A stretch of 64,000 bases of DNA. Origin: Mobula hypostoma. Taxonomy: Eukaryota. The stretch covers positions 119,910,001 to 119,974,000 of the forward strand of contig NC_086097.1 in the NCBI RefSeq assembly GCF_963921235.1, read 5' to 3'. The notes beneath the pieces were generated by a model, which had not been told where the DNA came from, searched no databases, and was given only the letters and a program-made list of their open reading frames with translations. The position numbers were made by a program, and so were the translations under genes. Positions 29,141 to 62,120 of the stretch are shown here, piece by piece (position 1 is the stretch's first letter; the number at the start of each line of letters is the position of its first letter).

Positions 29141-29484
29141 AAAACATCGAAACATATGTGTCAATGACCAAGACAGTTTGGATGTGCTGGGGGAGCCCGC
29201 AAATGTTGCCATGCTTCCAATAAAAACATAGCATGCCCACAACATACCAACCTTAAAGTGTATTTGTTTCCAAAGTGGGAGGAATCCAGAGTACCCCGGA
29301 GGAAACCCATGCAGTCACAGAGAGAACAAGCAAACTCCTTATAGGTTGTGGCTGACTGGTGATCACTAGCGCCGCAAAGTGTCTGAGCCATTAACAAATT
29401 TGCAATCTGTTTATTTCTATTACTTTGACTTTGTGACACAAGCCCATACAACTCGACTTCTCTGCATGCACTCCTGAAAAATTT

Positions 29485-29719
29485 CAAAGTTGCTGGTGAA
29501 CGCAGCAGGCCAGGTAGCATCTCTAGGAAGAGGTACAGTCGATGTTTCGGGCCGAGACCCTTCATCAGGACTTCCTTCAGTTAGTCCTGACGAAGGGTCT
29601 CGGCCTGAAACGTCGACTGTACCTCTTCCTAGAGATGCTGCCTGGCCTGCTGTGTTCACCAACAACTTATATGTGTGTTGCTTGAATTTCCAGCATCTGC
29701 AGAATTCCTCGTGCTTGCA
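29485..29719. mobile_element. Palindromic Penelope-like insertion (two inverted 3' ends)
   Basis: Inverted arms; TSD CCTGAAAAATTT at 29473-29484 and 29720-29731. Confidence 0.9.
29582..29619 (+). ncRNA. Minimal type I hammerhead ribozyme (PLE-associated)
   Basis: TAGTC-CTGACGA-AGG(gtctcgg)CCT-GAAAC-GTC-GACTG; palindromic ACGU stem III. Confidence 0.85.
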
Positions 29720-29966
29720 CCTGAAAAATTTGTTTTCTCATTTAATCATGTATATCTAAATGGATAATATGCTGATACAACACACCCATAAGAGGAGAGT
29801 CTTAAGTATAAAAGTAATGGTGGACCTTACCCATAGCCTCTGTCAAGATTCAACGTTAGGAGGAAGTCTGAAGTGTCTTCTGCTGCTGACCTCATGTTTG
29901 AGTAAAAGGTATGTCGCTCTCTTAACATCATACAACTGTACAGGGAACATAGCTCAGGAAATATGC

Positions 29967-30183
29967 ACAAGAAATTCTGCAGATGTTGGAAATCCAGAGC
30001 AACATACACAAATTGCTAGAGGATCTCAGCAGGCCAGGCAACACCTTGGACAGGCATTAATAGTTGACATTTGGGCCGAGACCCTTCATCAGGACTGGCT
30101 CATCAGGATGAAATGTCTTTGCCTGTAAAGTCATCTGCATTCTTCTCCATACATGCTGCTGAGTTCCTTCAGCATTTTATGTG
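29967..30183. mobile_element. Older palindromic Penelope-like insertion
   Basis: Inverted decayed arms; degenerate TSD GCTCAGGAAATATGC (29952-29966) / GGTCAGTAAGTATGC (30184-30198). Confidence 0.65.
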
Positions 30184-30902
30184 GGTCAGTAAGTATGCTT
30201 CTTTTGTGACTGATCTTGATTTTCCCAGTTTGTATCAACACATCTCAATTTCTCTCAACAATACTTCGAAACAAGTGAGATAGCACAGGAGTGAAGAAGA
30301 AAACATGCCGGGTTCTCAAACATTTTTCACGAGGGTCAGCGGTTTAGTTTCGAGGATGGTGTACTTCAGAGGGAAAATTCATACTGGAACATTCCACTCT
30401 GGTAAAATATTAACTTTCAAAACATAATGCTTAAGGATACAGGGGCACTAAAAGAATCCACGGAATGTTACCCTGGTGCTAATTTAACATTCAGGTCATA
30501 AAGGATAATTGGTCAGATGGATGTAATTGAGCCGTGCAGGCTCACTTGGTTGGAGGAGGCTGCTACCATGCCATTTCTCTAATAAGGAAAAAAAATAACA
30601 GTACAGCCAAGGATCAGGCTCTTCACCCACGGTGTTAAGCAAACTAATAAAACTAATAATTAAATGCCTAACTAAACTAAATCTTTCTGCCGACACAATA
30701 TTCTTAACCCTCCATTCTCGGCACATTCATATGCCCATTGAAGAACTTGTTTAATGCTTCTGGCAGCTATCACCCCTGGCAGTGCATTCCAAACACCCAC
30801 CAATCTCAGTGGTAAAAAAAATTGCCCTTTCAATCTCCTTTCAATTCGCTGACTATCAGTTGGAATAGAAAATTACACCACTTCAGCTTACAGATTCTAA
30901 AT

Positions 30903-31221
30903 GGTTTTTTTGGTGTGTGCCTGTGTGCGTGCGCATCTGTATGTGTGCATCTGTGTGTCCGTGTGTGCGTCTGTGATTATGGATGTTTCATGGCTTTTTC
31001 CAAGGCGCAGGGTGAGAGAGAGAGACTGTGTGGCACGCCACTCCCCACACAGACATTTTCACAGTATTTTCCCTTTGTTTTACGAAGTCGAGTTGCGGTC
31101 TCGACACTCAACCCAGCATGGATGGAAAGCGTGCTCAGGGGCGGACCGACTAGTTTCAAACCCGGGAACCTCCACTCCTGGGTCCAGCGCCGATGTCGTT
31201 GCGCCAACAGCCGGCCCACAG
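30903..31221 (-). mobile_element. Young tRNA-headed SINE with 13-bp TSD
   Basis: TSD ACAGATTCTAAAT at 30890-30902 and 31222-31234; minus A-box TGGCGCAACG and B-box GGTTTGAAAC; CA-rich tail. Confidence 0.85.
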
Positions 31222-31307
31222 ACAGATTCTAAATTTCAAACCCATGAGTATTTTATCCAAAGCTGAAAATAATGCTAAGGCAAGGGAGAGCTACAAAGGC
31301 TTGAGGG

Positions 31308-31485
31308 AAGCAAAGTGGCACAGCTAGTTGAAGCACTACCTCATAGTGCTCGAGAGCCCTGTTCAATCGTGACCTCTGGTGATAACTGTGTTGTGTTTGT
31401 ATTTTCTCCCCATGACTCTGCATTTTCTCTAGGCTGTTCCAGTTTCCTCCTAAATCCCAGAGACATGCGGGTTGGCAGGTCGATT
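31308..31485 (+). mobile_element. tRNA-derived SINE head and core (V-SINE/HE1-like)
   Basis: A-box GTGGCACAGCTAG, B-box GTTCAATC, core 'gtgtttgtattttctccccatgac'. Confidence 0.6.
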
Positions 31486-31642
31486 AGCTTCTTCTCTCTT
31501 CCCTTCCAGTCCTGAAGAAGGGTCTTGGCCCAAAACATTGACTGTTTAATCCTCTCCATTGATGTGGCCTGCCCTGCTTTGTTTCTCCAGCATTTTGTGT
31601 GTGTTATTCTGGATTTTCAGCATCTGCAGAATCTCTTGTGTT
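31486..31642 (+). mobile_element. Penelope-like 3' end with decayed hammerhead
   Basis: CAGTCCTGAAGAAGGGTCTTGGCCCAAAACATTGACTG. Confidence 0.7.
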
Positions 31643-33034
31643 CATAAGTTTTCCCCTTGAGAGCAGGTGAGTGATACCTACAAGTCTCCATTGAATCTAG
31701 GGGATTCAAGAGGATGTAGCCAGATTTTTTAAAATGGCATTAATATAGGATTAACATCAGATAGGTAGTTGGTAATCAGTGTAGACACACTGAGGTGAAG
31801 TTTCTATGTTGCATGCTTTCATGACCGGGCCTCAGGATTTTGTAGAAATTGACATGTAGACATGGATTTGATGTTTAAAGTACATTTACTATTGAAGTAT
31901 GTATACATTATACAACCTTGAGATATGTCTCCTAACAGACAGCCAAAAAACAAAGAAATCCAAAAACAAACCTCATATATATGACAAAAAGGACTGTCTA
32001 GCATCCAAATGTGCAGAGAAAAAAATAATCATGTCCTAACAGAGATCAGCAGATTTCTGGAAGGATAGATGCCAAGGGATATTGAGTTAGTGCAGGAAAA
32101 TGGCACTGAGGTCAAAGTCCAGGCACGATCATGTTGAGTGGTGGAGCAGAAACAGAAGGCCAAGTGTCCTTTTTGTTTTAATTTTTTATGTCCTTCTGTA
32201 GAAATTTCCCCCAAATACTTTGAAAATGCTTGCAACAGTTTCAGAATCACAGAGTGTACTTCTGGATAAAAGAACTTTATCTAGAAATACACAAAATTAT
32301 CATTCTGGCTCCAATTCTCTGCTTGAAATAAAGGATAAAATTTGACTGAAAATTGTGGAAAGGCTTCAATTTTCAGGGAAAGATTGTCTAAAGAAAAAAA
32401 TGCTATCATGGAAGAACTTGGAGATAATTAAAGTGAGAACAGGCTAGGACGGGAATGGTCATTATATTCTGCCTGCTCCTCTTTTCCAAATTGACTTCTC
32501 TTCTACAAGCATTAAATTATTTATAATCTTTGGATTTCTCTTTTTTCTATTCTGCTTTGTAATTAAATATAAATGAACTTGTTTAATGATAAATGACACA
32601 CACCATTTAGTCTTGTAGTGGTAACATCTGAGAAAAGCTACTCTGACATTTTGCAGATCATTAGGAACTTGAACTAAGTGGCAGAAATAAACATGTGTCC
32701 CTCTCCATTCAGTTCTTCCCTCGTAGTCTACTCAATCAACCTGAAGAGAGATAAAATCGATATATCAAAAGTAATTGCAGCTCTGGGTGGAACTTGTTAA
32801 TTAGGGAATTAATTCTTGCATGATAAGCAGAGTATGAGAATATTGTTGATGGTCATCTAAAGCAATAAAAGATTTAGACTACAATGAATGAAAATATTAG
32901 TCCAAAATAATGAATGGACATTCACTTAAAATAGGCACTTGTGAAGAAACATTGAAATGAGTCAATACAAATCCAATCATTGAACGGAGCTTCAGTATAT
33001 CTGACTGGTATACACACATAACCTTTTGTTTTTA

Positions 33035-33205
33035 GTTTTTATTGTGGCACCTTCCCCCTTCCTTGTCACACCTGAAGAAGAGTCTCAGCCCAAAACATTG
33101 ACTATCTATTCATTTCCATAGGCGCTGTCTGACCTGCTGGGTTCCTCCAGAATTTTGTGCGTGTTGCTTTGGATTTCCAGCATCTGCAATCTTCCTTGTG
33201 TTTGT
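33035..33205 (+). mobile_element. Penelope-like 3' end with decayed hammerhead
   Basis: CCTGAAGAAGAGTCTCAGCCCAAAACATTGACT plus downstream tail. Confidence 0.7.
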
Positions 33206-33470
33206 ATTTTTTTGGCTGTTGGTTAGAATAAGTGGCAGGAAGCTAATTGTGCCTAATCCTCCTTTTTGAAATAATCTTTTCACACTCTTTTTATGCTTCA
33301 CTGGTTGAGTATTCATTGACCTGGAGAGCATTTATAGATTTAAGATGAGCTGCAAGGGGATTAGAGGGGATATAGTCATTCAGATGATGTCTATAGTTTG
33401 AAACACACCGCCTAAGAGGGTGGTGGAGAAAGAGATGCTCACGATTTCTGAGAACTATCCTGAAAAACAC

Positions 33471-34613
33471 TGTATATTAAAGAGAAATGGGAGAAAGAAG
33501 TGGGGTTGGTACTTTCAGAGGAGGCTTGGGGGAAAATCTGCAGCTTTCAATGGTCCTCGACTAATTCTTTGACTTGGAGAGAACATTGTTGGAAAAACAT
33601 TATAAGATACTTCAAGACCCCATATCAGGAAAAATATAAAGATACAAATGTGATGTGTTGGAGAAGGTGCGGCTCTAAGGAGGCAAATCATTTTCATATT
33701 TTCTGGGATTGCCCTAAATTAAGTCTATTTTGGGAAGGTATTCATAGAACATTAGTTAAGGTACTTAGGTCCCAGATACCTCTGAACTTTGAGACGCTCT
33801 ATTTGGGGCATGTATTGTTCCTTGAACAGAAGGAAGATATAAAGTTGCTGCAGGCCCTCTTAGCGGCAAGTAAGAAATCAATCACTAGAAAATGGCTAAA
33901 TCCAATACCACCTACATTAGAAGATTGGTACGAAATTATCTTGGAAATATTTAAAATGGAAAAGTTGACCTACTCCCTGAGAACTCAAAAAGAAACATTT
34001 TATCAAATCTGGAATAAATGGATTGAATATATAACCCCAATGCGAGCAGACTTTAGATGACTCTCCTAATGATTTATATTGCTCTTCTCATCAACACAGT
34101 AATATTGCTAACGTAAGCACCCCTAGTCTAAATGTTTGTTGTTTTTTTTTGGAAAATAGAGAATTAGCACAAGTAAAGGGAAAGATTTGGGAAAGGGATA
34201 AAAAAAAATGAAAAAATTAAGTAAATAAGTACATAGGGATTGGATAATTATGTCTGCGGGCAGGAACAAGCACGAACAAATTGGGATATAAACACCTACA
34301 ATGGTTGGTATATAGGCTTGTATGCAACATTTTGGACCAGTGGAAATGGTACAGAAGGGTTGTATGGAAACTATTATTACCATTTTTCTTAACAACTAAT
34401 TTCATTACTTAGCCTAATAGGTTAGATTTACCACAGTACATAATTATCTATTTAAATGTTTATTTTGCTTTTATATCATCTCAATGTGTACTTAAGAATG
34501 TATAAATAATTGTAGTTTTATACATATAAAAAAATGGAAAAGGTTATATGTGTGAAAAAAGTACGTGATAATTGTGAACTCCTTATCCAAATAAAAATAA
34601 AATTTAAAAAAAA
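33471..34613 (+). mobile_element. 5'-truncated L1-clade LINE
   Basis: Open ORF2 C-terminus (CWRRCG...HIFWDCPKL, IWNKW) to 34060; 3' UTR; A-rich tail; AAAACAC repeated at 33464-33470 and 34616-34622. Confidence 0.9.
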
Positions 34614-34779
34614 GGAAAACACGAAGCACTGAGGCAAAAGAGGCTATGGACCAAGTGCTGTAAATAGTAACAGAATAAAGGGGTACTTGATGGTTTGCAT
34701 GCATATGATGGGCCAAATGGCCTGCTTCAGTGCTGTATGAATTTTACCATTGCAGGCCACCAGTAGATAGACATTTACT

Positions 34780-35076
34780 TCCAATGGCATTGCAGCATTA
34801 AAACTCATTGCAAGATTAATGCCCCATCCTGATGATCAAGTGATTTGGAATTTTAAATATGCTATAAGGCACAATCGGAACATCAGGTATTTGAGTTGAT
34901 GACACAGTGTCCCACAACTGACCCCTTGATTGCCTTTTCATTGTGATCTCTCCCTTCAAGGGCATATGAGTGTGGTAACTATCTGAATGTATTGAAATTC
35001 TTTCATATTTAAGTGAGGGAATAGCTTTGACTTAACAGGTTAATTTGATCTTCCTTTCCAAGGATGCTGCTGTTTT
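34780..35076 (+). repeat. Copy A of an old local duplication (copy B 38757-39046)
   Basis: Collinear similarity from GCATTAAAACTCA to GTTAATTTGATCTTYCTTTCCAAGGAT. Confidence 0.8.
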
Positions 35077-35696
35077 AGAACATTGAACACTACAGGCCTT
35101 ATGGTCCATGACGTTGTACTGGCCTTTTACCCTACTCTGCAATCAATCTAACCCTCCCTCCTATATCGCCCTCCATTTTCTATCATTCATCTGCCTATCT
35201 AAGAGATTTTTAAATATCCCTAATGTACCTGCCTCTCCCACCACCCCAGGAAGGCTTTCCACACACTCACCACTCTGTGTAGAAGTCCTATATCTGATAT
35301 CCCCCCTATTGTTTCCTCCAATGAACTTAAAAATTAATCCCCCTCATACTAGTCATCTCACTGCTGGGACAAAACTCTCTGGCTATCTATTCAATCTATG
35401 CCTCTTATCATCTTGTACACTTATTAGATGGGAGGGGATGTAAAGAAGAAGTTACTCATTCAGATGGTGGCTATTGTTTGTAATGCACTGCCTAAGACAA
35501 TTTTGGAGGAGGAGATGCCCACAACATCTGAGAAGTATCCTGGTGAGCACTTGAATCAAAAAGATCAGCTATGGACCAGGTGCTCTGCAAAGATACTAGA
35601 ACGGATGGTTGAAATTGACATGATGGGCCAAATAGCCTGTTTTTGTGTTGTATGAACTTCACCAGAGCAGACCAGCAGTAGACAGATATTACAGCA

Positions 35697-38600
35697 TCAC
35701 ATGCAAAATGCTGGAGGAACTCAACAAGTCAGGCAGCATCTATGAAAATGAATAAACAGTTGAGGTTTCGGGCTGATACACTTCTTCAGGACTGAAAAGG
35801 GAGAGGGAAGGCACCAGAATAAAAAGGCAAGGAGAGAGGAAGGTGGATGGCTGGAAGGTGATAGGTGAAGCTAGGTAGATGGAAAAGGTCAAGGGTTGGA
35901 GAGGAAGGAATCTGAAAGACCATAAGATATAAGAGCAGAAGTAGGCCATTTAGCCCATTGAGACTGCTTTGCCATTCAATCCTGGGCTGATCCAATTCTT
36001 CCAGTTATCCCCATTCCCTTGCCTTCTCCCCATACCCTTTGATGCCTTGGCTAATCAAGAGCCTATCCATCTCTTCCTTAAATGCACCCAATGACTTGGG
36101 CTCCACAGCCGCTCGTGACAGCAAATTCCACAGTTTTACCACCCTCTGACTAAAATAATTTCTCCGCATTTCTGTTGTAAATGGGAGTCCTTCAATCGTG
36201 AAGTAGAGCCCTCTTGTCCTAGACTCCCCTACTATGGGAAATAACTTTGCCGTATCTAATCTGTTCAGGCCTTTAACATTCAGAATATTTCTATGATATC
36301 CCCCCTCATTCTCATGAACTCCAGGGAATACAACCCAAGATCTGCCAGACGTTCCTCATACGGTAACCCTCTCATTCCTGGAATCATTCCCGTGAACCTT
36401 CTCTGAACCCTCTCCAATGTCAGTATATCCTTTCTAAAATAAGGAGCCCAAAACTGCACACAATACTCTGTGTGGTCTCGTGAGTGCCTTATAGAGCCTC
36501 AACATCACATCCCTGCTCTTTTATTCTATTCTCTAGAAATGAATGCCAACATTGCATTCGCCTTCTTCACCATGGACTCAACCTGGAGGTTAACCTTTAG
36601 GGTATCCTGCACAAGGTCTCTCAAGTCCCCTTGCATCTCTGCATTTTGAATTCTCTCCCCATCTAAATAATAGTCCACCCATTTATTTCTTCCACCAAAG
36701 TGCATGACCATACATTTTCCGACATTGTATTTCATTTGCCACTTCTTTGCCCATTCCCCTAAACTATCTAGGTCTCTCTGCAGGTTCTCTGTTTCCTCCA
36801 CCTATCTTTGTTTCATCAGCAAATTTAGCCACAGATCCATTAATCCCATAATCCAAATCATTGACATACATCATAAAAAGCAGCTGTCCCAAAACCAACC
36901 ACTGTGGAAGTCCACTGGTAACTGACAGCCAGTCAGAGTAGGATCCTTTTATTCCCACATTCTGTTTTCTGCCGATCAATCAATGCTCCACCCATGCTAG
37001 TAATTCCCCTGTAATTCCATGGGCTGTTATCTTGCTAAGCAGCCTCATGTGCGGCACCTTGTCAAAGGCCTTCTGAAAATCCAAGAACACCACATCTACG
37101 ACATCTCCTTTGTCTACGCTGCTTGTAATTTCCTCAAAAAATTGCAGTAGGTTAGTCAGGCAGGATTTTCCTTTCAGGAAACCATGCTGGCTTTGGCCTA
37201 TATTGTCATGTGCCTCCAAGTATTCTGTAATCTCATCCCTAACAATCGATTCCAACAACTTCCCAACCATTGATGTCAGGCTAACAGGTCTATAGTTTCC
37301 TTTCTGCTTCCTCCCACACTTCTTAAATAGCGGAGTAACATTTGCAATTTTCCAGTCATCCAATACAATGCCAGAATCTAGCGATTCCTGAAAGATCATT
37401 GTTAATGCTCTCCCAAGGGTACATTCCATCAGGTCCAGGAGATTTATCCACCATCAGACTATTAAGCTTCCTGAACACCTTCTCAGTCATGATTTTCACT
37501 TCACAAACTTCACTTCCTTGACGCTCTTGAATGTCCAATATACTGCAGATATCTTCCACTATGAAGACTGATGCAAAATATGCATTCAGGTCCTCTGCCA
37601 TCTCTGTGTCTCTCATTACAGTATCTCCAGCATCATTTTCTATTGGTCCTATATCTACCCTCAACTCTCTTTTACCCTTTCTATACTTTAAAAAGCTTTT
37701 AATATCTTCTTTGATATTAGTCACCAGCTTTCTTTCATAATTAATCGTTTCCTTCCTAATGACCTTCTTAGTTGCCTTCTGCAAGTTTCTAAAAGCTTCC
37801 CTATCCTCTCTATTCCCACTAACTTTTGCTTCCTTGTATGCCCTCTCTTTTGCTTTTACCTTGTCTCTGACTTCACTTGTCAGCCACGTTAGTGTCCTTC
37901 TTCCATTCAAAACATTATTCTTATTTGGAATATATCTGTCTTGCACCTCCCTCATTTTTCACAGAAACTCCAGCCATTCCTGCTTTGCTATCCTTCCTGC
38001 TAGTGTCCCTTTCCAGTCAACCTTGGATGGTTCCCCTCTCATACCATCGTAATTTCCTTTATTCCACTGAAATACCAACACATTGGAATTTAGTTTCTCC
38101 TTCTCAAAATTCAAAGTGAACTCAATCATATTGTGATCACTGTTCCTTAAGGGTTCCTTAATCTTAAACTCTCTTATCACCTCCGGATCATTGCACAATA
38201 CCCAATCCAGCACAGCCAATCCCCTAGTGGGCTCAACAACAAGCTGTTTTGAAAAGCCATCCCTTAGACATTCTCTCTCTTGAGGTCCAGTACTGGCCTG
38301 GTTTTCCCAATCCACTTTCATGTTAAAGTTCCCAATGATTATCATGACATTGCCCTTCTGACATGCCTTTTCTATCTTCTGCTGTAGTTTGTAATCCACA
38401 TCCCGGCTGCTGTTTGGAGGCCTGAATACAACTGCCATTAGGGTCCTTTTACCCTTACCATTTCTTGACTCAACCAATAGAGACTCTATACCTTCCGATC
38501 CTATGTCATCCCTTGCTAATGATTTATTATTGTTTCTTATATACAAGAGATGAGAGTGGATCATTGAAGAAAGGGAAAGAGGGGAGTGTTAGGCAGGTGA

Positions 38601-38748
38601 GAAGAGGTAAAAAGTTAGAGTGGGGAAGAGATGAAAGGTGGGAGGGAGGATTTTTTTTTACCAGATATTCATTCCATCAAGTTGGCGGCTACCCAGACAG
38701 AATACAAGCTGTTGCTGCTACACCCTGAGGGTGGCCTCATCTTGACAT
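35697..38748 (-). mobile_element. Old Penelope-like 3' fragment split by a CR1 (pieces 35697-35916 and 38546-38748)
   Basis: Hammerhead remnant near 35757-35794; right piece matches the GIY-YIG end (ggctacccagacagaat). Confidence 0.7.
35917..38545 (-). mobile_element. CR1 LINE, 5'-truncated ORF2 (part of EN plus RT)
   Basis: GNFN, SDHNMIEF, WKIANVTPLFKK, NYRPVSLTS, DFQKAFDKVPH, KFADETK; CR1 tail at 35917. Confidence 0.95.
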
Positions 38749-39665
38749 AATAATATAATGGCATTAAAACTCACTGCAAAGTTAATGCCCCTTTCCAATG
38801 TTCAAATGGTTTGGAACTTTAACTGTGTTATAAGACACAAGGGGAAACAGCTGAAATCTTGTGCTGATGAAGCACTATCCAACAAGGGGTCCCTTGACTG
38901 CCTTTGTGCTCTCACTTTGCAAGTGAGTATTGTGTGATAACTATCTCAGTGCATTGAACTTGCTTCATACTTAACCATGAATGAAAGACTGAGGAAATAG
39001 CTTAAAAAGTTAATTTGATCTTTCTTTCCAAGGATTCTTCTGTTTTATTTATGAGGAATAGCATTTGTTCAATTTGTAAATTCCTATTTATTTCATTGCA
39101 AAAATCATACTTAAAAGTAATTTTTACACACTCTAGATTGAGGCTTTAAGACATTGGTTAGACCACATGTGGAGTATTGTGAGCTGTTTTGGAACTCTTA
39201 TCTAACAAAGGATGCACTGCCTTTGAAGGTGATCCAGATGATGTTTACGAGAATAATCTCGGGAAAGAAAGAGTTAACGTATGAGGAGCATTTGATGGCT
39301 CTGGGCCTGTACTCAATGAAAAGAATGAGGGGGATCTCATTGAAACCTATGAAATATTGAAAGGCCTAGACAGAGTGGTGTGGAGAGGATATTTCCAATA
39401 GTAAGAAAGTGGAGGGTCAGAGGGCATAGCCTCAGAATGAAAGGACATCCATTTAGAACAGAGATGAGGAGGAACAACTTCAGCCAGATGTTGATGAATC
39501 TGTGGAATTCATTGTCACAGATATCTGTGGAGGCCAAGTCATTTGGTATATTTAAAGTGGAGTTGGATTGTCTATTGATTAGTAATAGTGGCAAAGATTA
39601 TGGGAAAAAGGCAGGGGAATGGCATTGGGAGGGATAATACATCAGCCATAATCAAATAGAGTCAA

Positions 39666-40434
39666 GCAACACACACAATGCTGGTGGAATGCAGCAGGCC
39701 AGACAACATCCATAGGAAGAAGCACAATCGACATTTCGGTCTGAGACCCTTCGTCAGGACTAACTGAAAAAAGAGATAGTAAGAGATTTGAAAGTGGGAG
39801 GGGGAGGGTGAGATCAGAAATGATAGGAGAAGACAGGAAGGGGAGAGAGGGAGCTAAGAGCTGGAAAGTTGATTGGCAAAAGGGATACAAGGTTGGAGAA
39901 GAGAGAGGATCATGGGAGGGGAGGCCTAAGCAGAAAGAAAGGGGGAGGGGAGCACCAGAGGAATATGGAGAGCAGGCAAGCAGTTATAGTGAGAGGGACA
40001 AAGAGAGAGTGAAAAAAAGAGAAAAATAAATAAATAACGGATGGGGTACGAGGGGGAGGTGAGGCATTAGCGGAAGTTAGAGAAGTCAATGTTTATGCCA
40101 TCAGGTTGGAGGCTATCCAGACGGAATATAAGGTGTTCCTCGAACCTGAGTGTGGCTTCATCTTGACAGTAGAGGAGGCCATGGACAGATTTTCCAGCTC
40201 TTAGCTCTATCCCTCCCCCTCCTGTCTTCTCCTATCATTTTGGATGTCCCCCTCCCCTTCCCACTTTCAAATTTCTTACTATCTCTTCTTTCAGTTAGTC
40301 CTGACGAAGGGTCTCGACCTGAAACGTCGACTGTGCTCCTTCCTATGGATGCTGTCTGGCCTGCTGCGTTCCACCAGCATTTTGTGTGTGTTGCTTGAAT
40401 TTCTAGCATCTGCAGATTTCCTCGTGTTTGCGGT
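39666..40434. mobile_element. Inverted double-3'-end Penelope-like insertion
   Basis: Minus arm to ~40189 reaching the GIY-YIG end, plus arm ~40190-40434; TSD ATCAAAT(A/G)GAGTCAA at 39651-39665 and 40435-40449. Confidence 0.9.
40296..40333 (+). ncRNA. Minimal hammerhead ribozyme (PLE)
   Basis: TAGTC-CTGACGA-AGG..CCT-GAAACGTC-GACTG. Confidence 0.85.
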
Positions 40435-40614
40435 ATCAAATGGAGTCAACTCAATAAGCCAAATTGCTTAATTCTCCTCTTATGTCTTATGGTCACTTGT
40501 GCTAATTTCTGAATGAATCTGTGCCCAGAATGAGAATGATCCGTGCACTTTTGTGTTCAATTCAATACATTTTTTTCCGACAAAATATTTGTTTATCACG
40601 TCCTGTTATGGAAA

Positions 40615-40915
40615 TAGATTACCAGAAGAACAGACTCAAGGATGTCTTCTTGAAGAAATGCAGCATCCCTCCTGACGACTGGAAAGCTGCAGTGTCTAAC
40701 TGACCTGTGGAGCAGAATCTTTCACAATGCTATTGAGAAAGTCAAGATCGTGCAGCATGCACACTAAATCTCTCTGGAAATGGCAGAAGGTGCACACATC
40801 ACCTCATGGAAAACATACCCACCAGATGTCTGTTGCCCCATCTGTAGAGGAGGCTGCGATTCACAGATTGGCCTAATCAGCCACTTTCAAAACCCACAAA
40901 ACTGGACTGGAAGCA
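40615..40915 (+). mobile_element. RTE-clade LINE C-terminal remnant
   Basis: QKNRLKD...KKCSIPPDDW and CPIC...IGLISH motifs. Confidence 0.65.
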
Positions 40916-41119
40916 AAACCACCTTAAATTAGTTTTGTCTAAAAAGCAAAATGAGAAGAGAGTACAAATATGTGAAATATGAAATTAATAAAATATATTT
41001 GACTACTTAGTTATATTTATGTCTTAATGGGAGAATGCTGACAGAATATACTGCAACTTGTTCAAATGGCTCTTCATTTCCCCCAAAACATGGCAAAGTC
41101 AGCATTTATTTTTTTACAG

Positions 41120-41372
41120 CGTTGGGCAGGTTCTTCTCGCCCTACGAGCCACACTGCCCAGCAATCCCCCAGTTTAATCCTAGTCTAATCATGGGACAAT
41201 TTACAATGACTAACTGATCTACCAATTGGAACGTCTGTGGATTGTGCAAGGAAATCAGAGCACCCAAACAGTCACACGGCGAATGTACAAACTCCTTACA
41301 GGCAGCAGCGGGAATTGAACCCTTGACACTGTAAAGCATTGTGCTAACCACTACGCTGCCATACTGCCCCGG
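41120..41372 (-). mobile_element. tRNA-derived SINE
   Basis: Minus A-box GTAGCGTAGTGG, B-box GGTTCAATTCC, shared core. Confidence 0.75.
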
Positions 41373-41737
41373 TATACTGTCATATCCACTGACTGCCATT
41401 GACAGTGCTCAGATTGTGCTGGGAGCAGCCCACAAGAGTCACCATGCTTTGGCACCAACGTAGCATGCCCACAACTCATTGACATTAAGCAGACAGTATA
41501 CCTTTGGAATGTGGGATGGAACTAGTGCATCCAGAGGGCACCCATGCACTGAACCTACAAACTCATAACAGACAGAAGCATGAATTGAACCCCAGTCTTA
41601 CAGTAGGCACCGTAGTAGCATTATGCTCACCTCTGCACACGGGTGCGAGTCATAAGATGCAATATTATGTCTTGCAAGGTTGTTGAAAGGCCACTTACGC
41701 TATTGAATTAGTGGGACTACCCCAATAATTACATTCA

Positions 41738-41910
41738 ACACACACTAAATGCTGGAGGAACTCTGCAGGTCAGACAGCATCAATGGAGTGAAATAAACAG
41801 TAGATGTTTCAAGCCAAAAACCCATACCGGTCCTGAAGAATGGTCTCGGCTCAAACCATTACCACTGCTCAGTCCCTCCAGTGCTTTGTGTACACTGCTC
41901 TGCATTTCCA
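41738..41910. mobile_element. Old palindromic Penelope-like remnant
   Basis: Minus tail followed by plus CCTGAAGAATGGTCTCGGC and decayed tail; no clear TSD. Confidence 0.5.
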
Positions 41911-42886: not shown

Positions 42887-42924
42887 TGTAAGTGTAAGGT
42901 GACTGTTTTTGGTTTTGGTTTGTT

Positions 42925-48709: not shown

Positions 48710-50115
48710 TATATTCCACACTTTTCAATGCAGCATCACACTGATTCATATAAACTATTAAGTCTTAAGATATGTCCCTATTCTCAACCTACAATGAAGA
48801 AAATTAACAATTACTGCGTGGAATGAGATAACGATGCACTCCTTATCCAAAGTGATCATGTTTTCCCAGTTTGAGTTAATGTCTTCATTATCTTGCGTGT
48901 CCTTTTTCCTTTCTTAGCACTGGAACTAAATTAATTTCGCCTCTTCACGTTACCACAGAAAATGTTCACATCCAAGCCAACCAAGTTAATGAAATTCAGT
49001 CTGGTCTGTGGAATGTAAGTCCATCTGAGTATATGCTATGTTGCCGCTGAAAGCTTTGTGAAACTTTTGGGCTTCCCACAAGATTTGAATTAAAGTTCAG
49101 AGTATGTCACTATATACAGCACTGCCTTGAGTTTCTTATGGGCATTCACAGTGGATACAAAGAAACAATAGAGTCAATGAAAATCCACACGTGACAAAGA
49201 TGGAGAAACAACTAATGTACACATGACAACAAATGGTGCAGATACAAAAAAAAGAAAAAATTAATAAATTTATATGCAATAAACATTGAGAACATGGGTT
49301 GTAGAGTCTTTAAAAGTGAGTTCGTAGATTGTGGCATAAAATTGTTTAATCCATTTAAAAGCCCATTACTTTAAAGGAGATTACACGCTACATAGTGTGG
49401 CCATGGTACTTCAGAAGAAGTACACCAAGGTTTTTTTTATGAGCTGCTAGCAGAAGATCACAATGTATTGCCAGTGCCAGCATGGTGCCTATTTGACACA
49501 TATGATATATTACACTATGTGTACATGTGACAAATTAAACTAAGCTTTATGTTCTTCATCTTTATAAAAAAGTGGAATATCTAGTTTAAATATACTGTAT
49601 TTCTGGGCATGAGAATCTATCATATTGAAAGTGACTGGCTTATTGACTCCTTAATCATGCAGGGGTGATAACAGAACACTTTGTAAATGAAGCAAACAAG
49701 AGGAATTCTGCAGATGCTGGAAATTCAAGCAACACACATCAAAGTTGCTGGTGAACGCAGCAGGCCAGGCAGCATCTCTAGGAAGAGGTATAGTCGATGT
49801 TTCAGGCCGAGACCCTTCGTCAGGAAGAGTTAGTAAGAGATTTGAAAGTAGGAAGGGGAGGGGGAGATCCAAAATGATAGGAGAAGACAGGAGGGGGAGG
49901 GATGGAGCCAAGAGCTGGACAGGTGATTGGCAAAGGGGATATGAGAGGATCATGGGATAGGAGGCCCAGGGAGAAGGAAAAGTGGGGGGGGGGAATCCAG
50001 AGGATGGGAAAAGGGTATAGTCAGAGGGACAGAGGGAGAAAAAGAAGAGAGAGAGAGAGAGAAAGAATGTGTATAAAAATAAATAACGAATGGGGTACGA
50101 GGAGGAGGTGGGGCA

Positions 50116-52163
50116 TTAGCGGAAGTTAGAGTCAATGTTCATGCCATCAGGTTGGAGGCTACCCAGACGGAATATAAGGTGTTGTTCCTCCAACCTGAGT
50201 GTGGCTTCATCTTTACAGTAGAGGAGGCCGTGGATAGACATGTCTGAATGGGAATGGGATGTGGAATTAAAATGTGTGGCCACTGGGAGATCCTGCTTTT
50301 TCTGGCGGACAGAGCATAGGTGTTCAGCAAAATGGTCTCCCAGTCTGCATCGGGTCTTGCCAATATATAGAAGGCCACATCGGGAGCACCGGACGTAGTA
50401 TATCACCCCAGCCCACTCACAGGTGAAGTGTTGCCTCACCTGGAAGGACTGTCTGAGGCCCTGAATGGTGGTAAGGGAGGAAGTGTAAGGGCATGTGTAG
50501 CACTGGTTCCGCTTACAAGGATAAGTGCCTGGAGAGAGATCAGTGGGGAGGGATGGGGAGGACAAATGGACAAGGGAGTCACGTAGGGAACGATCCCTAC
50601 GGAAAGTGGGGGAGGAGGGAAAGATGTGCTTAGTGGTGGGATCCTGTTGGAGGTGGCGGAAGTTACGGAGAATAATATGTTGGACTTGGAGGCTGGTGGG
50701 GAGGTAAGTGAGGACCAGGGGAACCCTATTCCTAGTGGGGTGGCGGGAGGATGGAGTGAGAGCAGATGTGCATGAAATGGGGGAGATGCATTTGAGAGCA
50801 GAGTTGATGGTGGAGGAAGGGAAGCCCCTTTCTTTAAAAAATGGAGGACATCTCCCTCGTCCTGGAATGAAAAGCCTCATCCTGAGAACAGATGCGGCGG
50901 AGACGGAGGAATTGCGAGAAGGGGATGACATTTTTGCAAGAGACAGGGTGAGAAGAGGAATAGTCCAGATAGCTGTGAGAGTCAGTAGGCTTATAGTAGA
51001 CATCAGTGGATAAGCTGTCTCTAGAGATAGAGACAGAAAGATCTAGAAAGGGGAGGGAGGTGTCGGAAATGGACCAGGTAAACTTGAGGGCAGGGTGAAA
51101 GCTGGAGGCAAAGTTAATAAAGTCAACGAGCTCAGCACGCGTGCAGGAAGCAGCGCCAATGCAGTCGTCGATGTAGCGAAGGAAAAGTGGGGGACAGATA
51201 CCAGAATAGGTTCGGAACATAGATTGTTCCACAAAGCCAACAAAAAGGCAGGCATAGCTAGGACCCATACGGGTGCCCATAGCTACACCTTTAGCTTGGA
51301 GGAAGTGGGAGGAGCAAAAGGAGAAATTATTAAGAGTAAGGACTAATTCCGCTAGACGGAGCAGAGTGGTGGTAGAGGGGAACTGATTAGATCTGGAATC
51401 CAAAAAGAAGCGGAGAGCTTTGAGACCTTCCTGATGGGGGTTGGAAGTGTGTAGGGACTGGACATCCATGGTGAAAATAAAGCGGTGGGGGCCAGGGAAC
51501 TTAAAATCATCGAAAAGTTTAAGAGCGTGAGAAGTGTTACGAACATAGGTAGGAAGGGATAGAACAAGAGGGGATAAAACCATGTCGAGGTATGCAGGAA
51601 CGAGTTCGGTGGGGCAGGAGCAAGCTGAGACAATAGGTCTGCCAGGACATGCAAGTTTGTGGATCTTGGGTAGGAGGTAGAAACGGGAAGTTCGAGGTGT
51701 GGGAACTATAAGGTTGGTAGCAGTGGATGGGAGATCCCCTGAGCGGATAAAGTCGGTGATGGTGTGGGAGACAGTGGCCTGGTGCTCCTTAGTGGGGTCA
51801 CGATCGAGGGGTAAATAAGTGGAGGTATCCGCGAGTTGTCGCTGTGCCTCGGCAAGGTAGAGGTCAGTACACCAGAATACAACGTCACCCCCCTTATCGG
51901 CGGGTTTAATAGTAAGGTTAGGATTAGTGCGGTGGGTGTGGAGAGCAGAGCGTTCGGAAGGAGTGAGGTTGGAATGGGGACAAGGTGCGGTAAAGTCGAG
52001 ACGGTTGATGTCCCGTCGGCAGTTAGCAATAAAGAAAATCCAGAGCAGGCAGAAGACCAGAGCGGGGTGTCCATGAAGAAGAGGAGGGTTGAAGACAGGA
52101 GAAGGGGTCATCGGTGGGGGTGGAAGATTCCTTGCCGAAGAAGTAGGCTCGGAGACGGAGACG
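50116..52163 (-). pseudogene. PLE RT + GIY-YIG endonuclease, left arm (5'-truncated, frameshifted)
   Basis: KPADKG, FTMDVQSL, GVAMGTRMGPSYA, RYIDD; VIY...LYIGKT, GMN. Confidence 0.95.
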
Positions 52164-53758
52164 CACTTCCCGTTTCTACCTCCTACCCAAGATCCGCAAA
52201 ACTGCCTGTCCTGGCAGACCTATTGTCTCAGCTTGCTCCTGCCCCACTGAACTCATTTCTGCATAACTCGACATGGTTTTATCCCCCTTTGTTCTATCCC
52301 TTCCTACCTCTGTTCGTGAGACTTCTCACGCTCTTAAACTGTTCGATGATTTTAAGTTCCCTGGCCCCCACCGCTTTATTTTCACCATGGATGTCCAGTC
52401 CCTATATACTTCCATCCCCCATCAGAAAGGTCTCAAAGCTCTCTGCTTCTTTTTGGATTCCAGACCTAATCAGTTCCCCTCTACAACCACTCTGCTCCGT
52501 CTTGCGGAATTAGTCCTTACTCTTAATAATTTCTCCTTTGGCTCCTCCCACTTCTTCCAAGCTAAAGGTGTAGCTATGGGCACCCGTATGGGTCCTAGCT
52601 ATGCCTGCCTTTTTGTTGGCTTTGTGGAACAATCTATGTTCCGAACCTATTCTGGTATCTGTCCCCCACTTTTCCTTCGTTACATCAACGACTGCATTGG
52701 CGCTGCTTCCTGCATGCATGCTGAGCTCGTTGACTTTATTAACTTTCCCTCCAACTTTCACCTGGCCCTCAAGTTTACCTGGTCCATTTCCGACACCTCC
52801 CTCCCCTTTCTAGATCTTTCTGTCTCTATTTCTGGAGACAGCTTATCCACTGATGTCTACTATAAGCCTACTGACTCTCACAGCTATCTGGACTATTTCT
52901 CTTCGCACCCTGTCTCTTGCAAAAATACCATCCCCGTCTCGCAATTCCTCCGTCTCCGCCACATCTGTTCTCAGGATGAGGCTTTTCATCCCAGAACGAG
53001 GGAGATGTCCTCCTTTTTTTAAAGAAAGGGGCTTCCCTTCCTCCACCATCAACTCTGCTCTCAAACGCATCTCCCCCATTTCATGCACATCCGCTCTCAC
53101 TCCATCCTCCCGCCACCCCACTAGGAATAGGGTTCTCCTGGTCCTCACCGACCACCCCACCAGCCTCCGGGTCCAACATATTATTCTCCGTAACTTCTGC
53201 CACCTCCAACGGGATCCCACCACTAAGCACATCTTTCCCTCCCCGCCCCCTCCCCCCCCCCCGGCTCTCCGCAGGGATCGTTCCCTACGCGACTCCCTTG
53301 TCCATTCATCCCCCCCATCCCTCCCCACTGATCTCCCTCCTGGCAGTTATCCTTGTAAGCGGAACAAGTGTTACACATGCCCTTACACTTCCTCCCTTAC
53401 CACCATTCAGGGCTCCAGACAGTCCTTCCAGGTGAGGCAACACTTCACCTGTGAGTCGGCTGGTGTGATATACTGCGTCCGGTGCTCCCGATGTGGCCTT
53501 CTATATATTGGCGAGACCCGACGCAGACTGGGAGACCGCTTTGCTGAACATCTACGCTCTGTCCGCCAGAGAAAGCAGGATCTCCCAGTGGCCACACATT
53601 TTAATTCCACATCCCATTCCCATTCTGACATATCTATCCACGACCTCCTCTACTGTAAAGATGAAGTCACACTCAGGTTGGAAGTACAACACCTTATATT
53701 CCGTCTGGGTAGCCTCCAACCGGATGGCATGAACATTGGCTTCTCTAACTTCCGCTAA
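52162..53758 (+). pseudogene. PLE RT + GIY-YIG endonuclease, right arm (5'-truncated, frameshifted, YIND)
   Basis: Same motifs; VIYCVRCSRCGLLYIGETRR. Confidence 0.95.
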
Positions 53759-54039
53759 TGCCCCACCTCCCCCTTGTACCCCATCCATTATTTATTTTTA
53801 TACACACATTCTTTTTCTCTCTCTCCTTTTTCTCCCTCTGTCCCTCTGACTATACTCCTTGCCCATCCTCTGGTTCCCCTCCCACCTCCATCTTTCTCCC
53901 GGAACCTCCTGTCCCATGATCCTCTCATATCCCCTTTGCCAATCACCTGTCCATCCCTCCCCCTCCTGTCTTCTCCTATCATTTTCAATCTCCCCCTCCC
54001 CCTCCCACTTTCAAATCTCTTACTAACTCTTCCTTCAGT

Positions 54040-54077
54040 TAGTCCTGACGAAGAGTCTCGGCCTGAAACGTCGACTG
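54040..54077 (+). ncRNA. Minimal hammerhead ribozyme in the PLE 3' tail
   Basis: CTGACGA 54045-54051, GAAAC 54065-54069, GTC 54070-54072; stem II carries one substitution. Confidence 0.75.
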
Positions 54078-54399
54078 TACCTCTTCCTACAGATGCTGCC
54101 TGGCCTGCTGCGTTCACCAGCAACTTTGATGTGTGCTACTTTGTAAATGAGCTAACGTGGGTTTATGAATGAACACATTTGACAAACTTGCTGAGGTTCT
54201 TGGAATGTAAGTAGTAGAATAGATGAGGACAACCAGTAGATGGGATGTATTTCTATGCTTAGAGGCCTTATTTATAGATGGAGGGTGGTCATCAACGTTA
54301 AGGCAGATAGGATTGGGGCAAATATACAGACATGGTTAAATAAAACTTATTACTCGAAATAAAACAAAGAGTGAGAGTTAATAAATGCTTCTCATTTTG

Positions 54400-58235: not shown

Positions 58236-58699
58236 TATATTTATGCAACATGCAATGAGAATGATCCTCATCCCATGTCTGAAAATTTGCTCCAACTTCA
58301 TCTGCTTTAACGTTGATAACCACCTTCCCGCATGGGACCTTAAAGAAAGCCTTTAAACACAGAAATCCACATCATCCAGTAGTTGCACAGCAATCTACAA
58401 TGCACATGAGAATGAATAAGATTCTGGTCGACCTTTTGAATGGATTGATAGGTTAAAGTAGGGTAAGAAATGTTTGAAGTTCAATTCCCATTTCTGCTGA
58501 GCTCGTTGGTAGTAGCAGAGCAGCAGATCAGGACTAAAATACAAGTTAGGTCACTACTCTGGTTTCTTATTCAGTGGTCCTTGCTGCTTATAGGAAATGA
58601 GAACAAGAACTGTCTAACTGCATTCTGAAATCAAACATGACTTGCTGCCAAAGTTTACTTCTGATACCTAGCCAGCTGCATCAGGTACCCGAGCTGTCA

Positions 58700-61120
58700 A
58701 GATCAAAATCAGAAGGTTTATTATCACTCTTTTGTGTGATTTGAAATTTGTTGCAAGATAGTGCAAGGACATAAAAATAACACACACTATAATATAAATG
58801 AACACTGCAAAATAACAGGAACGATGAGGTAATGTTCCTGGGACTGTGGACCATTCAGAAGTCTAATGCCAGAGGCGAAGAAGCCGTTTCTGAATTGTTG
58901 AGTGTGGGTCTTCAGCCTCACCGGGCATGGTGAGGATCCTTTGATGATTGTTGCTGCCTGCCTCTTGAAGATGGTGTGTTTTAAATGTGATGGGCCTGGC
59001 TGAGTCGACAACCCACTACAGCCTCGGGTAATCCTGCACATTGGAGCCAGAATGCTCTCTACTGTATATGTAGAGAAATTTGCAAGAGTGTTTGGTGACA
59101 TACCAAAACTCTTCAAACTTCTAGAGTGCTTGATATGCTTTCTTCACGATTGCATTGTGCTGTGCTCAGGACAGATCGGAGATATCGACATTCAGGAACT
59201 TAAAGCTGCTAACCTTTTCCATGCTTACCCCTTCAATGAGGACTGCTGCACACTCTCCTGACTTCCCTTTCCTGAAGTCCACAATCAGTTCTTGGGTCTT
59301 GCTGACATTGAATGCGAGCTTGTCTTTTGAGAGACCACTCAACCAGCCAATCTCGCACCTGCATATTTCCTTGTTGCCATTTGGGATTTTATCAACAACA
59401 ATAGTATCATCTGTGAATTTATAAATGGAGTTTGAGCTGTGCTTGTGAGAGTAGAGAGAGAAGATCAGTGAGCGAAACATGCATCCTCTGTGTTGATTGT
59501 AAAGTAGAGATGAGATTTCATCACAAATTCATACTGACTGAGGTCTCCTGATGAGGAAATCAAGGATCCATTTACAGAGAAGAAAACACAGGCCCGGGTT
59601 TAGAAGGTTGGTGATTAATACAGAGGGGATGATGGTATTGAATGTTGACCTGTAATTTTTGAACAGCAGCTTGACACAGATTTTACTGCAGTTTAGCTGC
59701 CCTTCTTGGGCACCAGTATGATTGCTGTCCTTTTGAAGCAGGTAAGATCAAACCATAGTAGTGAGAGATTGAAGTTGTTCTTGAACACTCCAGCCAATTG
59801 GTCAGCACAGGTTTTCAGATCCTAGCCAGGTACATCATCAAGGCCTGACATATTGCAGGAGTTCTCCACCTCGAAAAATGTTTTGACATTATCCTTCATG
59901 TCAGATCATAGGATCACCAGATGCTGTGGGGCTTGGTGTGGGTGTCATGTTATTCTCCACTGAGTGTGGGTTAGGGCATTGAGCTCACCAGGGTGTGAAG
60001 CATCACTGCCATTCATGGTTAGTTTTGTCCTGTAGCAAGTAATGGCCTGCAAACCTTATCATAGCTGTCATGCATTTGATTTTTCTCTAATTTCATAAAT
60101 AATTGCCTTTTCATTCTTCCAATGGCCATAGTTTGTACCTGGACTTCTGATAGGATTCTGGATCACCAATCTTGAATGCTACACATTTAGCACTCAACAC
60201 ACTGTGAATCTCCTAGTTCAACCAGGGCTTATGGTTTGACAGAATGTGGCAAGTTCTTGAAGACACACACTCACTCACACAGGTCTTTATGAAGTCTGTG
60301 ACAACTGTGGTATAGTCATCCAAAGATGAATCCCTGAATATGGTCCGACTAAAAGCAGTCCTATAAGTGCTCCTCTCTCTCCCTTCACCACATCTTCGTG
60401 GTGCACACCACTGGTGCTGCAGTCCTCAGGAGAAGTACAGCCAGGTGATTGGACTTTCCAAAGTGTGGTTGTGGGATGACACGGTCAGTGCTGTGGATGG
60501 CAGTGTACGTGTTGGTTTCCCTAGGTCTGCAAGTGGCATTTGGTGTTAGTTTGTCATATATATACTTCTTTAAGTAAACCTGGTTGAAGTCTCCCACAAT
60601 GAGCTGGAAAGTAACAAGGTCCTCTGTCTCATGACCTTGATTAGTGTTCACCTCCTCCAGCCTGATGTTGTGCAAGGGAGGAATGTACACAGCAACCATG
60701 ATGACAGCAGGAAATGCCCCGGCAGAGAGAACAGATGACACTTGACCACCAGATGCACCACGTCAGGGGAGCAGGGCTGAGTCGGAGCTATCACATCCAG
60801 GCCTTAATGAATTAACCATGAAGCAAACTCCACCGCCTCTACCTTTACCTGAGGCCACCGTCTGTCATGCAGTGATGGTGAAGCCCTCGGGCTGGAGCAC
60901 TATATCCAAAATGCTGCGGTGTGGGGGGAGTAATCCAGGGACACAACAGATTCTGATTTCCCTCTGGGATTGCAGTTTCGCTCCAATGTCTTCAGTTCTC
61001 TTTTCCAGAGACTGTACATTAGCCAGGCAGATGGTTGGAGGTGGGGAGGTTGTTATGGTGCCTGGCGCCTGTATTTCAGTGTCACCTGGAGTCCTCCCCA
61101 GCAGCCAGGTATCCTGAGAC
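58700..61120 (-). mobile_element. Decayed long Rex1/Babar LINE (EN + RT)
   Basis: ICLANVQSL, AVYIPP, VGDFNQ, PHFGKSNH, YKFTDDT, KTQELIVDFRK. Confidence 0.85.
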
Positions 61121-61539
61121 AATGGAGAACTTCCCTGAGCTACTGTCTGTTACACCCAAGCCCTGGGTGGCCTGGAGTCTCCACTCCGTCCTTTCTGATC
61201 ATCAGTAGCTCTTGTAAATCACTTGAAACAATGTTACATCAATCTCTGCATCTGTTGATCTCAACTTTTGTAAGTGGGGGTACTTCATGATTCCCTTGGA
61301 GATGCCAACAACACATTGACCCTGCCTGGTGCCATTTTGAGTTGTCACTATGTAAGACTACAAGACTATAAGACACTGGAGAAAAAATTAGGCCATGATG
61401 GCAACGGTGTCTCTTTGATACTGTTCGCAGTTAATTACATGGGAATGCATAGAGCAAGGTAAATACTAACTGAAGGTTCTTAAGTTGTTCTTATTATAGA
61501 CACCAAACATATCAGAATTTCATGAAAGCAGTAGCATAA

Positions 61540-62120
61540 AGACCACAAGACAATACGACATGGGAGCAGGGTTAGGCTGTTCAGCCCATCAAATCTGCTC
61601 TACCATTCAATCTTGGCCAATTTATTCAGAACCCCATTCAACCCCATTTCACCGGCCTTCTCCCTGTAAACATTTGACACCCTTACTAATTAAGAACACG
61701 TCAACAACCACTTTAAATATACCCAATGACTTAGCCTCCCCAGCTGTCTGCAGAAAAGAATTCCACAAACTCACTACAACAGGAATTCTGCAGATGCTGG
61801 AAATTCAAGCAACACACATCAAAGTTGCTGGTGAACGCAGAAGGCCAGGCAGCAACGTTGATGTGTGTTCCACAAACTCACTGCCCTCTAGCTAAAGAAA
61901 TTCTTCCTTACCTTTGTACTAAAGGGATGTCCTAATATTCAGAGCCTGTGCCTTCTGGTCGTAGACTCTCCCGCTATTGGAAACATCCTCTCCAGGTCCA
62001 CTCTGTTCAGGCCTTTCAATATTTGATGGGTTTTCAATGAGATCCACTCAAATTCTTCTAAGCTTCAGCAAGTACAGGCCCAAAGGTATCATATCCCTTT
62101 CGTTCCTGGATCATTCTCAA
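61540..62120 (-). mobile_element. CR1 3' fragment with nested mini-PLE
   Basis: CR1 tail and ORF2 end collinear with 9066-9550. Confidence 0.8.
61776..61867. mobile_element. Minimal (92-bp) inverted Penelope-like insertion
   Basis: TSD TTCCACAAACTCACT at 61761-61775 and 61868-61882; arms joined at CAGCA microhomology. Confidence 0.9.

Follow-up and report, generated by a model that had tools for sequence, protein, structure and literature searches.

Inverted Penelope-like insertions pair one long with one short terminus, pointing to priming at both target nicks

How does a retroelement come to insert two copies of its own 3' end, head to head, at a single target site? The question is raised by a stretch of 64,000 nucleotides (nt) from Mobula hypostoma (NCBI RefSeq assembly GCF_963921235.1, contig NC_086097.1; hereafter the window), which carries five insertions of a Penelope-like element (PLE). 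In each, an arm on the minus strand comes first and one on the plus strand second, both with the same 3' end, and one target-site duplication (TSD) encloses the two. This architecture is not new, being the textbook PLE layout; what is new is a pairing rule, counted in two distant families, by which one long-ended arm is joined to one short-ended arm. We attribute the rule to twin priming on the target, in which each of two fixed start sites is used once and a single RNA is the simplest template, and put the probability of this reading at roughly one half. The core that it shares with related models, namely that both nicks prime and that each uses one of the two start sites, we consider probable.

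The five insertions, A to E, measure between 92 and 4447 base pairs (bp). In insertion A, an 88-nt short-ended arm (29485-29572, minus strand) meets a 149-nt long-ended, tailed arm (29571-29719, plus strand) between perfect 12-bp TSD copies (29473-29484 and 29720-29731). Insertion B joins a short-ended arm of 525 nt (39666-40190, minus), which extends about 320 nt further 5' than its partner, to a long-ended arm of 244 nt (40191-40434, plus); both arms belong to one distinct subfamily, and the 15-bp TSD has one mismatch (39651-39665 and 40435-40449). The tailed end lies on the right in A and B and on the left in C, D, and E. Insertion C comprises a 128-nt long-ended arm (42690-42817, minus) and a 72-nt short-ended arm (42815-42886, plus), the latter with a further internal deletion of 23 nt and with 0 mismatches to its partner over 65 nt, in a 14-bp TSD with one mismatch (42676-42689 and 42887-42900). 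The long-ended arm of D (49691-52163, minus; about 2.47 kilobases, kb) contains a 5'-truncated reverse transcriptase (RT), a CX4CxxC linker, a GIY-YIG domain with a CCHH motif, the 3' repeat, and the tail; its short-ended arm (52162-54137, plus; about 1.98 kb) has the same domains and differs at 110 of 1944 aligned nt, and a perfect 13-bp TSD encloses the two (49678-49690 and 54138-54150). Insertion E, with arms of 79 nt (long-ended; 61776-61854, minus) and 18 nt (short-ended; 61850-61867, plus), is flanked by a perfect 15-bp TSD (61761-61775 and 61868-61882).

TSD scores for the five insertions were 11-15, above those of all 60 random position pairs, which reached 8 at most. The long ends lie 11-18 nt past the tail anchor motif and the short ends 37-49 nt before the long ends. 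Homology between short end and TSD amounts to 1, 4, 2, 0, and 2 nt from A to E, 9 nt in all (geometric null, P=0.002), and the central junctions, read by eye, overlap by 2, 0, 3, 2, and 5 nt (P about 1e-4), that of B being blunt. TSD scoring and alignment therefore bear out the initial annotation, which had placed the five insertions at these coordinates, with overlapping head-to-head arms in a single TSD of 12-15 bp, one long and one short terminus some 30-50 nt apart, and short-end homology of 1-4 nt in four cases.

Does the combination of ends follow a rule? In the window, a long and a short end are combined in all five young insertions and in both of two decayed pairs described below (P=0.008 if ends were drawn 50:50). 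A second family came from a scan of prokaryote genomes, in which seven of eight loci belonged to one record labelled as a bacterial metagenome-assembled genome (G001). Judged by its GC content of about 0.39, its microsatellites, and its PLEs, G001 evidently holds animal-type DNA; many of its contigs are of this type and carry a young Neptune-like PLE family, likely reflecting host contamination of a public prokaryote genome. The RT of this PLE is 58% identical to that of the window element (110 of 191 aligned residues) and the linker motif is again present; its 3' end is unrelated to the window family, a profile search giving no match. Around every match to two patterns and to a single DNA search, in which 40 of 97 candidates were scored, we collected 46 stretches, a set that is not exhaustive. 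We dropped C694 (no BLAST match), three C327 pieces (same flanks, inside another repeat), C115, C184, C643, and C562 (5' part leaves the contig), and C475, C555, C667, C716, and C728a (second arm or further pieces present, outer end not visible).

Both outer ends are visible in 22 head-to-head pairs of G001: 19 are long+short and none is long+long, two are unclear (C39, C205), and one is short+short. The last (C15, 4912-6672) has no TSD, its flank is mirrored exactly for 686 nt, and it looks like an inverted duplication or an assembly artefact. Sixteen of the 19 long+short pairs entered the count of end homologies, which excludes C10b and C645 (no clear TSD) and C283 (microsatellite). In these 16 TSD-flanked pairs the ends are bimodal, at 2135-2145 and 2075-2086 with a spacing of about 57 nt, and the TSDs measure 12-17 bp with a mode of 13; together with the spacing in the window, this agrees with the earlier claim of non-random terminus positions. 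No same-type pair with a TSD was found among the 21 clean pairs (5 in the window, 16 in G001). Eighteen further G001 insertions appeared single-armed: one has a tiny second arm, four have clean TSDs of 13-15 bp (three long-ended, one short-ended), one has an 8-bp match, and twelve show no TSD within 120 nt. The regularity of double arms noted initially is therefore strict as to pairing in clean cases and incomplete as to occurrence, with 16 of the 20 cleanly TSD-flanked G001 insertions double-armed and four single-armed. One single long arm (C487, 4948-5163) is separated at its 5' end from a 14-bp TSD by 45 nt of unrelated filler.

Homology to the target is found at both classes of ends. In G001, the long ends share a total of 26 nt with the TSD against a null mean of 11 (6 of 20000 permutations as high) and the short ends 29 nt against 9 (0 of 20000); the excess at long ends leads us to reject TSD homology as a speciality of short ends. 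The centres are more varied. By BLAST ends, nine overlap by 2-7 nt, three by about 0, and seven contain 3-25 extra nt, some of which copy nearby sequence. The young pairs C85, C491, and C227 are perfect palindromes centred on a self-complementary word of 4-6 nt, as would fit annealing of two cDNA (complementary DNA) ends. The proposal that the cDNAs join by microhomology is supported for many centres (2-5 nt at A, C, D, and E), though not for the blunt junction of B or for G001 centres with filler.

The arms also vary in how far they reach. Among the 19 G001 pairs, the short arm extends further 5' in nine, the long arm in five, and the two are equal in five; arm overlap ranges from -29 nt (none) to 1142 nt, two pairs being non-overlapping. 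The non-overlapping pair C110 (2805-4223) combines a 29-nt tailed arm with a 1.37-kb short-ended arm inside a perfect 13-bp TSD, an anatomy with the geometry of classical twin priming, here in a PLE. A different inverted-arm element lies beside it (181-2260), with 870-nt arms, a hammerhead-like motif near each end, and a 12-bp TSD. Many arms stop at a common point: 17 of 38 G001 arm 5' ends fall within 19 nt (1975-1993), a stretch that follows a TATA-like word by about 30 nt and lies immediately 5' of the hammerhead, and arms of A, C, and of the decayed loci F and G likewise end near the 5' side of the hammerhead.

Do both arms of an insertion derive from one source? Pairing the window arms by sequence places the true pairing among the best 4 of 120 for A-E and the best 7 of 5040 when F and G are included, and only 2 of 6 for A, C, and D alone; the two arms within one insertion differ by 0-11%. 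In G001, 82 of 89 diagnostic sites are concordant between arms and seven discordant (0 of 5000 shuffles), with at most two discordant sites per pair. The differences between the D arms are spread evenly over codon positions (29/25/28; ratio of nonsynonymous to synonymous change, pN/pS, 0.88). Descent of these arms from two separately evolved active sources was rejected because a synonymous excess is absent (p=0.33). This evenness of the 110 differences, together with a common frameshift, indicates that the D arms began near-identical and then decayed in place. The frameshift lies at a T-run between the RT and nuclease frames (53014-53020, plus; 50836-50842, minus, in the other arm), and the motif at this position is uninterrupted in at least 90% of 30 aligned homologues.

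Orthologous sites point the same way for insertion A. Contigs of four sequencing runs from related organisms were aligned on window positions 29150-43250, with an estimated divergence from the window of about 2% for organism B and about 6-8% for organisms C and D. Contigs of organism B extend 24-28 nt into both termini of insertion A. In organism D, 264 letters of a 440-nt contig match the right flank, and the other 176 correspond exactly to a left-flank contig end at 29297 that has equal depth (15.1); the two lengths add up to the full contig and leave no space for an arm. In organism C, the two flanks have an identical depth of 7.31. Insertion A thus appears to be wholly absent, both arms included, from two related species, judging from these contig matches. 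At insertion B, one organism C contig matches from the first base of the right TSD, with 21 letters left unmatched; of the empty sites that the initial annotation had proposed to look for, one is thus apparent at A and one is hinted at for B. At 29633-29708, contigs of organism D jump from the tail back into the repeat with four letters between, which might reflect misaligned sequence or repeat units of about 80 nt arranged head to tail.

Which PLE is involved? The D frames match Pfam weakly and below cut-off (RVT_1, E 0.001; GIY-YIG, E 0.001; two of four frames matched). The D protein has 361 homologues of at least 808 amino acids, with a best identity of 60%, annotated as RVT_1 and often GIY-YIG, and both D arms align across the RT and the C-terminal nuclease. 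The homologues are single open reading frames (ORFs) of about 900 amino acids; the window copies are 5'-truncated and frameshifted, and no full-length or tandem copy (a direct pseudo-LTR, long terminal repeat, upstream of the ORF) was found in the window. The CX4CxxC linker between RT and nuclease is present in both D arms and the linker motif in 102 of 120 homologues. According to PMC8557442, a CX2-5CxxC linker occurs in Neptune and Nematis and not in Poseidon, and its presence rules out the Penelope/Poseidon clade for D. By the motif definitions of that paper, the element classifies as an endonuclease-positive (EN+) PLE of Neptune or Nematis type. Since Neptune and Poseidon are the types reported from vertebrates (bioRxiv 10.64898/2026.07.22.740005), we favour Neptune over Nematis, a class assigned by motif and host range.

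The shared 3' end carries a minimal hammerhead motif, a predicted ribozyme, which in the long arm of A spans 29582-29619 (plus), as read by eye against the description in PMC4209133. Like the minimal hammerheads of metazoan PLEs described there, it has the core boxes, an extra base before helix II, a palindromic helix III, a short helix I, and a location in the terminal repeat; the predicted cut follows position 29614. The window motif differs from those hammerheads in that no covariation was found among 14 window copies, in which 85% of cells are paired against 17-44% when the pairing is slid. An Rfam scan gave three weak matches, none of them a hammerhead, and the 3' end, when folded as RNA, gave z scores of -0.6 and -0.9, which do not support a special structure. 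One endpoint of the internal deletion in the short arm of C (42822-42826) lies at most 3 nt from the predicted cut. We rejected truncation as a mark of hammerhead cutting: about 30 nt separate the predicted cut from the hot spots, which are 5' of it, and only the internal deletion of C touches the cut. Exact-pattern scans returned 0 matches in viral contigs and 29 in metagenomes, none matching the element over more than 30 nt and all taken as chance; protein-based searches of viral contigs, with 5 and 43 candidates, confirmed none.

How might such insertions be made? We envisage that the GIY-YIG domains would introduce staggered nicks 12-15 bp apart, a distance deduced from the TSDs, and that both 3'-OH ends would prime reverse transcription, aided by base pairing to the RNA over 0-6 nt. 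One start would lie at the downstream site, the end of the tail, and give the long terminus; the other, about 40-57 nt upstream, would give the short terminus, and starts of the same kind would never be combined. Both reverse transcriptions would then proceed toward the 5' end of the RNA. On one RNA, a trailing polymerase that halts before the upstream site would leave non-overlapping arms, as in L1 twin priming, and one that displaces the leading cDNA would leave overlapping arms; on a tandem transcript, the two starts may lie on different repeat copies. In many small insertions the polymerases might run off at the common point next to the hammerhead on its 5' side, which is probably where the transcript begins. 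Finally, the 3' ends of the two cDNAs would be joined by microhomology, bluntly, or with short filler, and filled in.

Given the absence of same-type pairs and the continuum of overlap from none to full, the simplest arrangement is that of two polymerases on one RNA, starting at neighbouring sites, while TSD homology at both ends and the self-complementary palindromes are compatible with two cDNAs that were primed separately and then joined at their ends. The single TSD and the homology at both end classes also support the initial annotation in its view of one event per TSD with priming at both nicks. Two copies of the 3' end, which it had thought to be required as template, are possible and, with overlaps extending down to -29 nt, not necessary. 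An account that retains two templates supposes that a protein dimer holds two transcripts of one locus, possibly paired through their hammerheads, that each nick uses its own RNA, and that an asymmetric complex dictates a long start at one nick and a short start at the other. All of the observed anatomy is compatible with this account, and the kilobase overlaps of D and C485 would need no strand displacement. PAc, a Poseidon element from Anolis, is predicted to be a dimer (PMC11167929), minimal hammerheads have been proposed to act as dimers (PMC4209133), and 'dual priming' is a named, unproven model for L1 (PMC2837659). By itself, however, the two-template account does not yield the absence of same-kind pairs among the 21 flanked ones, it leaves the continuum down to non-overlapping arms unexplained, and the arms are never clearly from two subfamilies; we regard it as unlikely, although worth keeping in view.

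Could one arm instead be a copy of the other? A cDNA or antisense template might fold and be copied back short of the tail, with later central deletions blurring the pattern, an idea close to the self-priming of PMC3846280. This would account for the identity of the arms, the one-sided tail, and the coupled lengths in the window, and it directly fits E, A, and D, in which the long arm reaches further 5' and the centre shows 2-5 nt of homology, B and C having altered centres. However, a short arm that extends further 5', as in nine of 19 G001 pairs, or arms without common sequence, as in two of 19, cannot be copied from the partner, so that simple fold-back fails without later deletions. The 29-nt and 1.37-kb arms of C110 are equally hard to obtain in this way, the short ends coincide with an in vitro initiation site (PMC11167929), and TSD-flanked single arms of either end class occur, all of which makes fold-back improbable. 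Least probable is an origin from two sequential insertions, recombination between neighbours, or faulty assembly. PLEs can target their own repeat (PMC11167929), and C15 resembles a mirror duplication or an artefact, yet a single TSD encloses both arms, the arms pair by subfamily, both termini of A are present in a second species and both apparently missing in two others, and differences of 0-11% between arms show that they are not assembly mirrors; this explanation is already largely refuted.

Several points weigh against twin priming on one RNA. Displacement over 2 kb in D or 1.1 kb in C485 would far exceed the internal duplications of L1, with a median of 22 bp. In vitro, PAc reportedly uses its start sites alike on both strands, without homology between RNA start and cleaved DNA (PMC11167929); strict pairing and end homologies are hence not predicted by that study, as far as its main text goes, which concerns a Poseidon element and not one of Neptune type. 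Only two long ends could be scored in the window and both share 0 nt with the TSD, and in G001 the last base is mismatched at three of the 16 long ends, bringing the homology total for this class down from 26 to 21. Arm lengths in the window are rank-correlated (rho 1.0 for five insertions, 1 in 120; 0.89 for seven); in G001 the coupling is weak (rho 0.47, p=0.04; 0.32, p=0.34 without hot-spot pairs), which weakens tight coupling as a general rule. Two RNAs of one locus, time-structured subfamilies, or gene conversion would produce bases common to both arms equally well, and the frameshift of the D arms may be family-wide.

Where does the pairing rule stand among known systems? The 'typical Penelope structure' has been described as an inverted repeat with a TSD and a tail on one inverted end, for which self-priming was proposed (PMC3846280), and in PMC8557442 the tail is depicted as frequently one-sided, and the PLE cycle and the origin of such insertions are termed undefined. 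New Penelope copies form inverted repeats of variable size, with the transcript start in the upstream repeat (PMC2377424, PMC3681739). Our insertions resemble these EN+ PLEs (Pen2a_Av, PMC3846280; PMC8557442; D. virilis Penelope, PMC2377424) in their head-to-head copies, single TSD, 30-40-bp tail at one end, and short junction overlaps or palindromes. They differ in TSD length (12-17 bp versus 8-10 in rotifer examples) and in that the pairing is strict in all clean cases, whereas the published descriptions treat the tail as optional or 'often' one-sided, give no counts in the parts concerned, and invoke self-priming or nuclease-mediated resolution. The end spacing is 37-49 nt in the window and about 57 nt in G001. 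For PAc, two internal starts equal the genomic ends, both strands are nicked and extended, and the repeat contains a hammerhead (PMC11167929), as seen or proposed here; PAc lacks the linker motif of the window element, and in the main text inverted insertions are not linked to the two starts and start-site homology to the target is reported as absent. With one-sided tails and two starts in print, the initial annotation, which acknowledged only that inverted repeats are known, understated prior knowledge. Among the papers listed, a literature search found neither a strict long+short rule nor twin priming for PLEs, and a search on sharks and PLEs found nothing relevant.

For L1, dual priming and twin priming with duplications and correlated arms have been described (PMC2837659, bioRxiv 10.1101/2024.08.27.596794). 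In L1, one priming site is the poly(A) and the other an internal position set by chance, whereas the PLE starts examined here are both fixed and close together, with overlaps of up to kilobases. We therefore rejected an L1-type twin-priming product as the identity of these insertions, which have no poly(A) and two fixed ends; they would work alike without being the same. The contrast drawn initially between non-overlapping L1 arms and overlapping PLE arms is a matter of degree, given that L1 twin priming on one RNA yields overlapping arms in 17% of 5'-inverted insertions (bioRxiv 10.1101/2024.08.27.596794).

A strict long+short rule in two families with 58% RT identity, together with target homology at both ends, narrows the origin of inverted, one-side-tailed insertions to priming at both nicks and opposes fold-back. 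It is also relevant to the way in which an RT related to telomerase finishes an insertion at both ends, and for annotation it means that such palindromes are single events and not miniature inverted-repeat transposable elements or microRNA hairpins. More tentatively, and with the odds somewhat against us, we propose that Neptune-type PLEs integrate mainly by programmed twin priming, in which a dimeric enzyme would use both nicks and two hard-wired neighbouring sites, and read one RNA twice with kilobase displacement. The tail would then be the footprint of two side-by-side polymerases, and second-strand priming, a chance event in long interspersed nuclear elements (LINEs), would be the default route.

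Other PLE ends are scattered through the window. The profile search yielded 15 loci after two extra matches at E>0.5 were dropped (the reversed window, as a control, gave one match at E 0.9): A-E, two decayed double-armed loci, and eight older one-armed loci, so that five of five young and two of ten old loci are double-armed. Locus F (29966-30187), from an older family, has a long arm at 29966-30101 (minus) and a short arm at about 30103-30187 (plus), with a TSD-like match of 12/15 (29952-29966 and 30184-30198) whose score was reached by three of 150 random pairs. Locus G (41735-41935) joins a short arm at 41735-41817 (minus) to a long arm at about 41827-41935 (plus), and no TSD was found for it. 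Seven older single-armed ends lie at 22133-22198, 22513-22625, 23059-23192, 31492-31642, 33052-33202, 42422-42500, and 44578-44790. None of the eight single-armed loci has a convincing TSD or a convincing tiny partner arm, the sole low p value coming from a CT-rich match. About 1000 contigs in each of the related-species runs stop at 31642, the long end of an older PLE family.

An older short-ended arm (35692-35910 and 38656-38748, minus) is seemingly split by a LINE insertion, with endonuclease and RT frames at 36980-38588 on the minus strand. A small, near-perfect hairpin at 44890-44956 matches an Rfam microRNA weakly, at a level that falls far short of the gathering score, and is probably a repeat fragment. 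Further LINE fragments are present at 23860-25753 (RT with a Cys-His-rich C-terminal part) and 33464-34060 (L1-like C-terminus), and the contig depth over the L1-like fragment is much higher in organism A than in organisms C and D.

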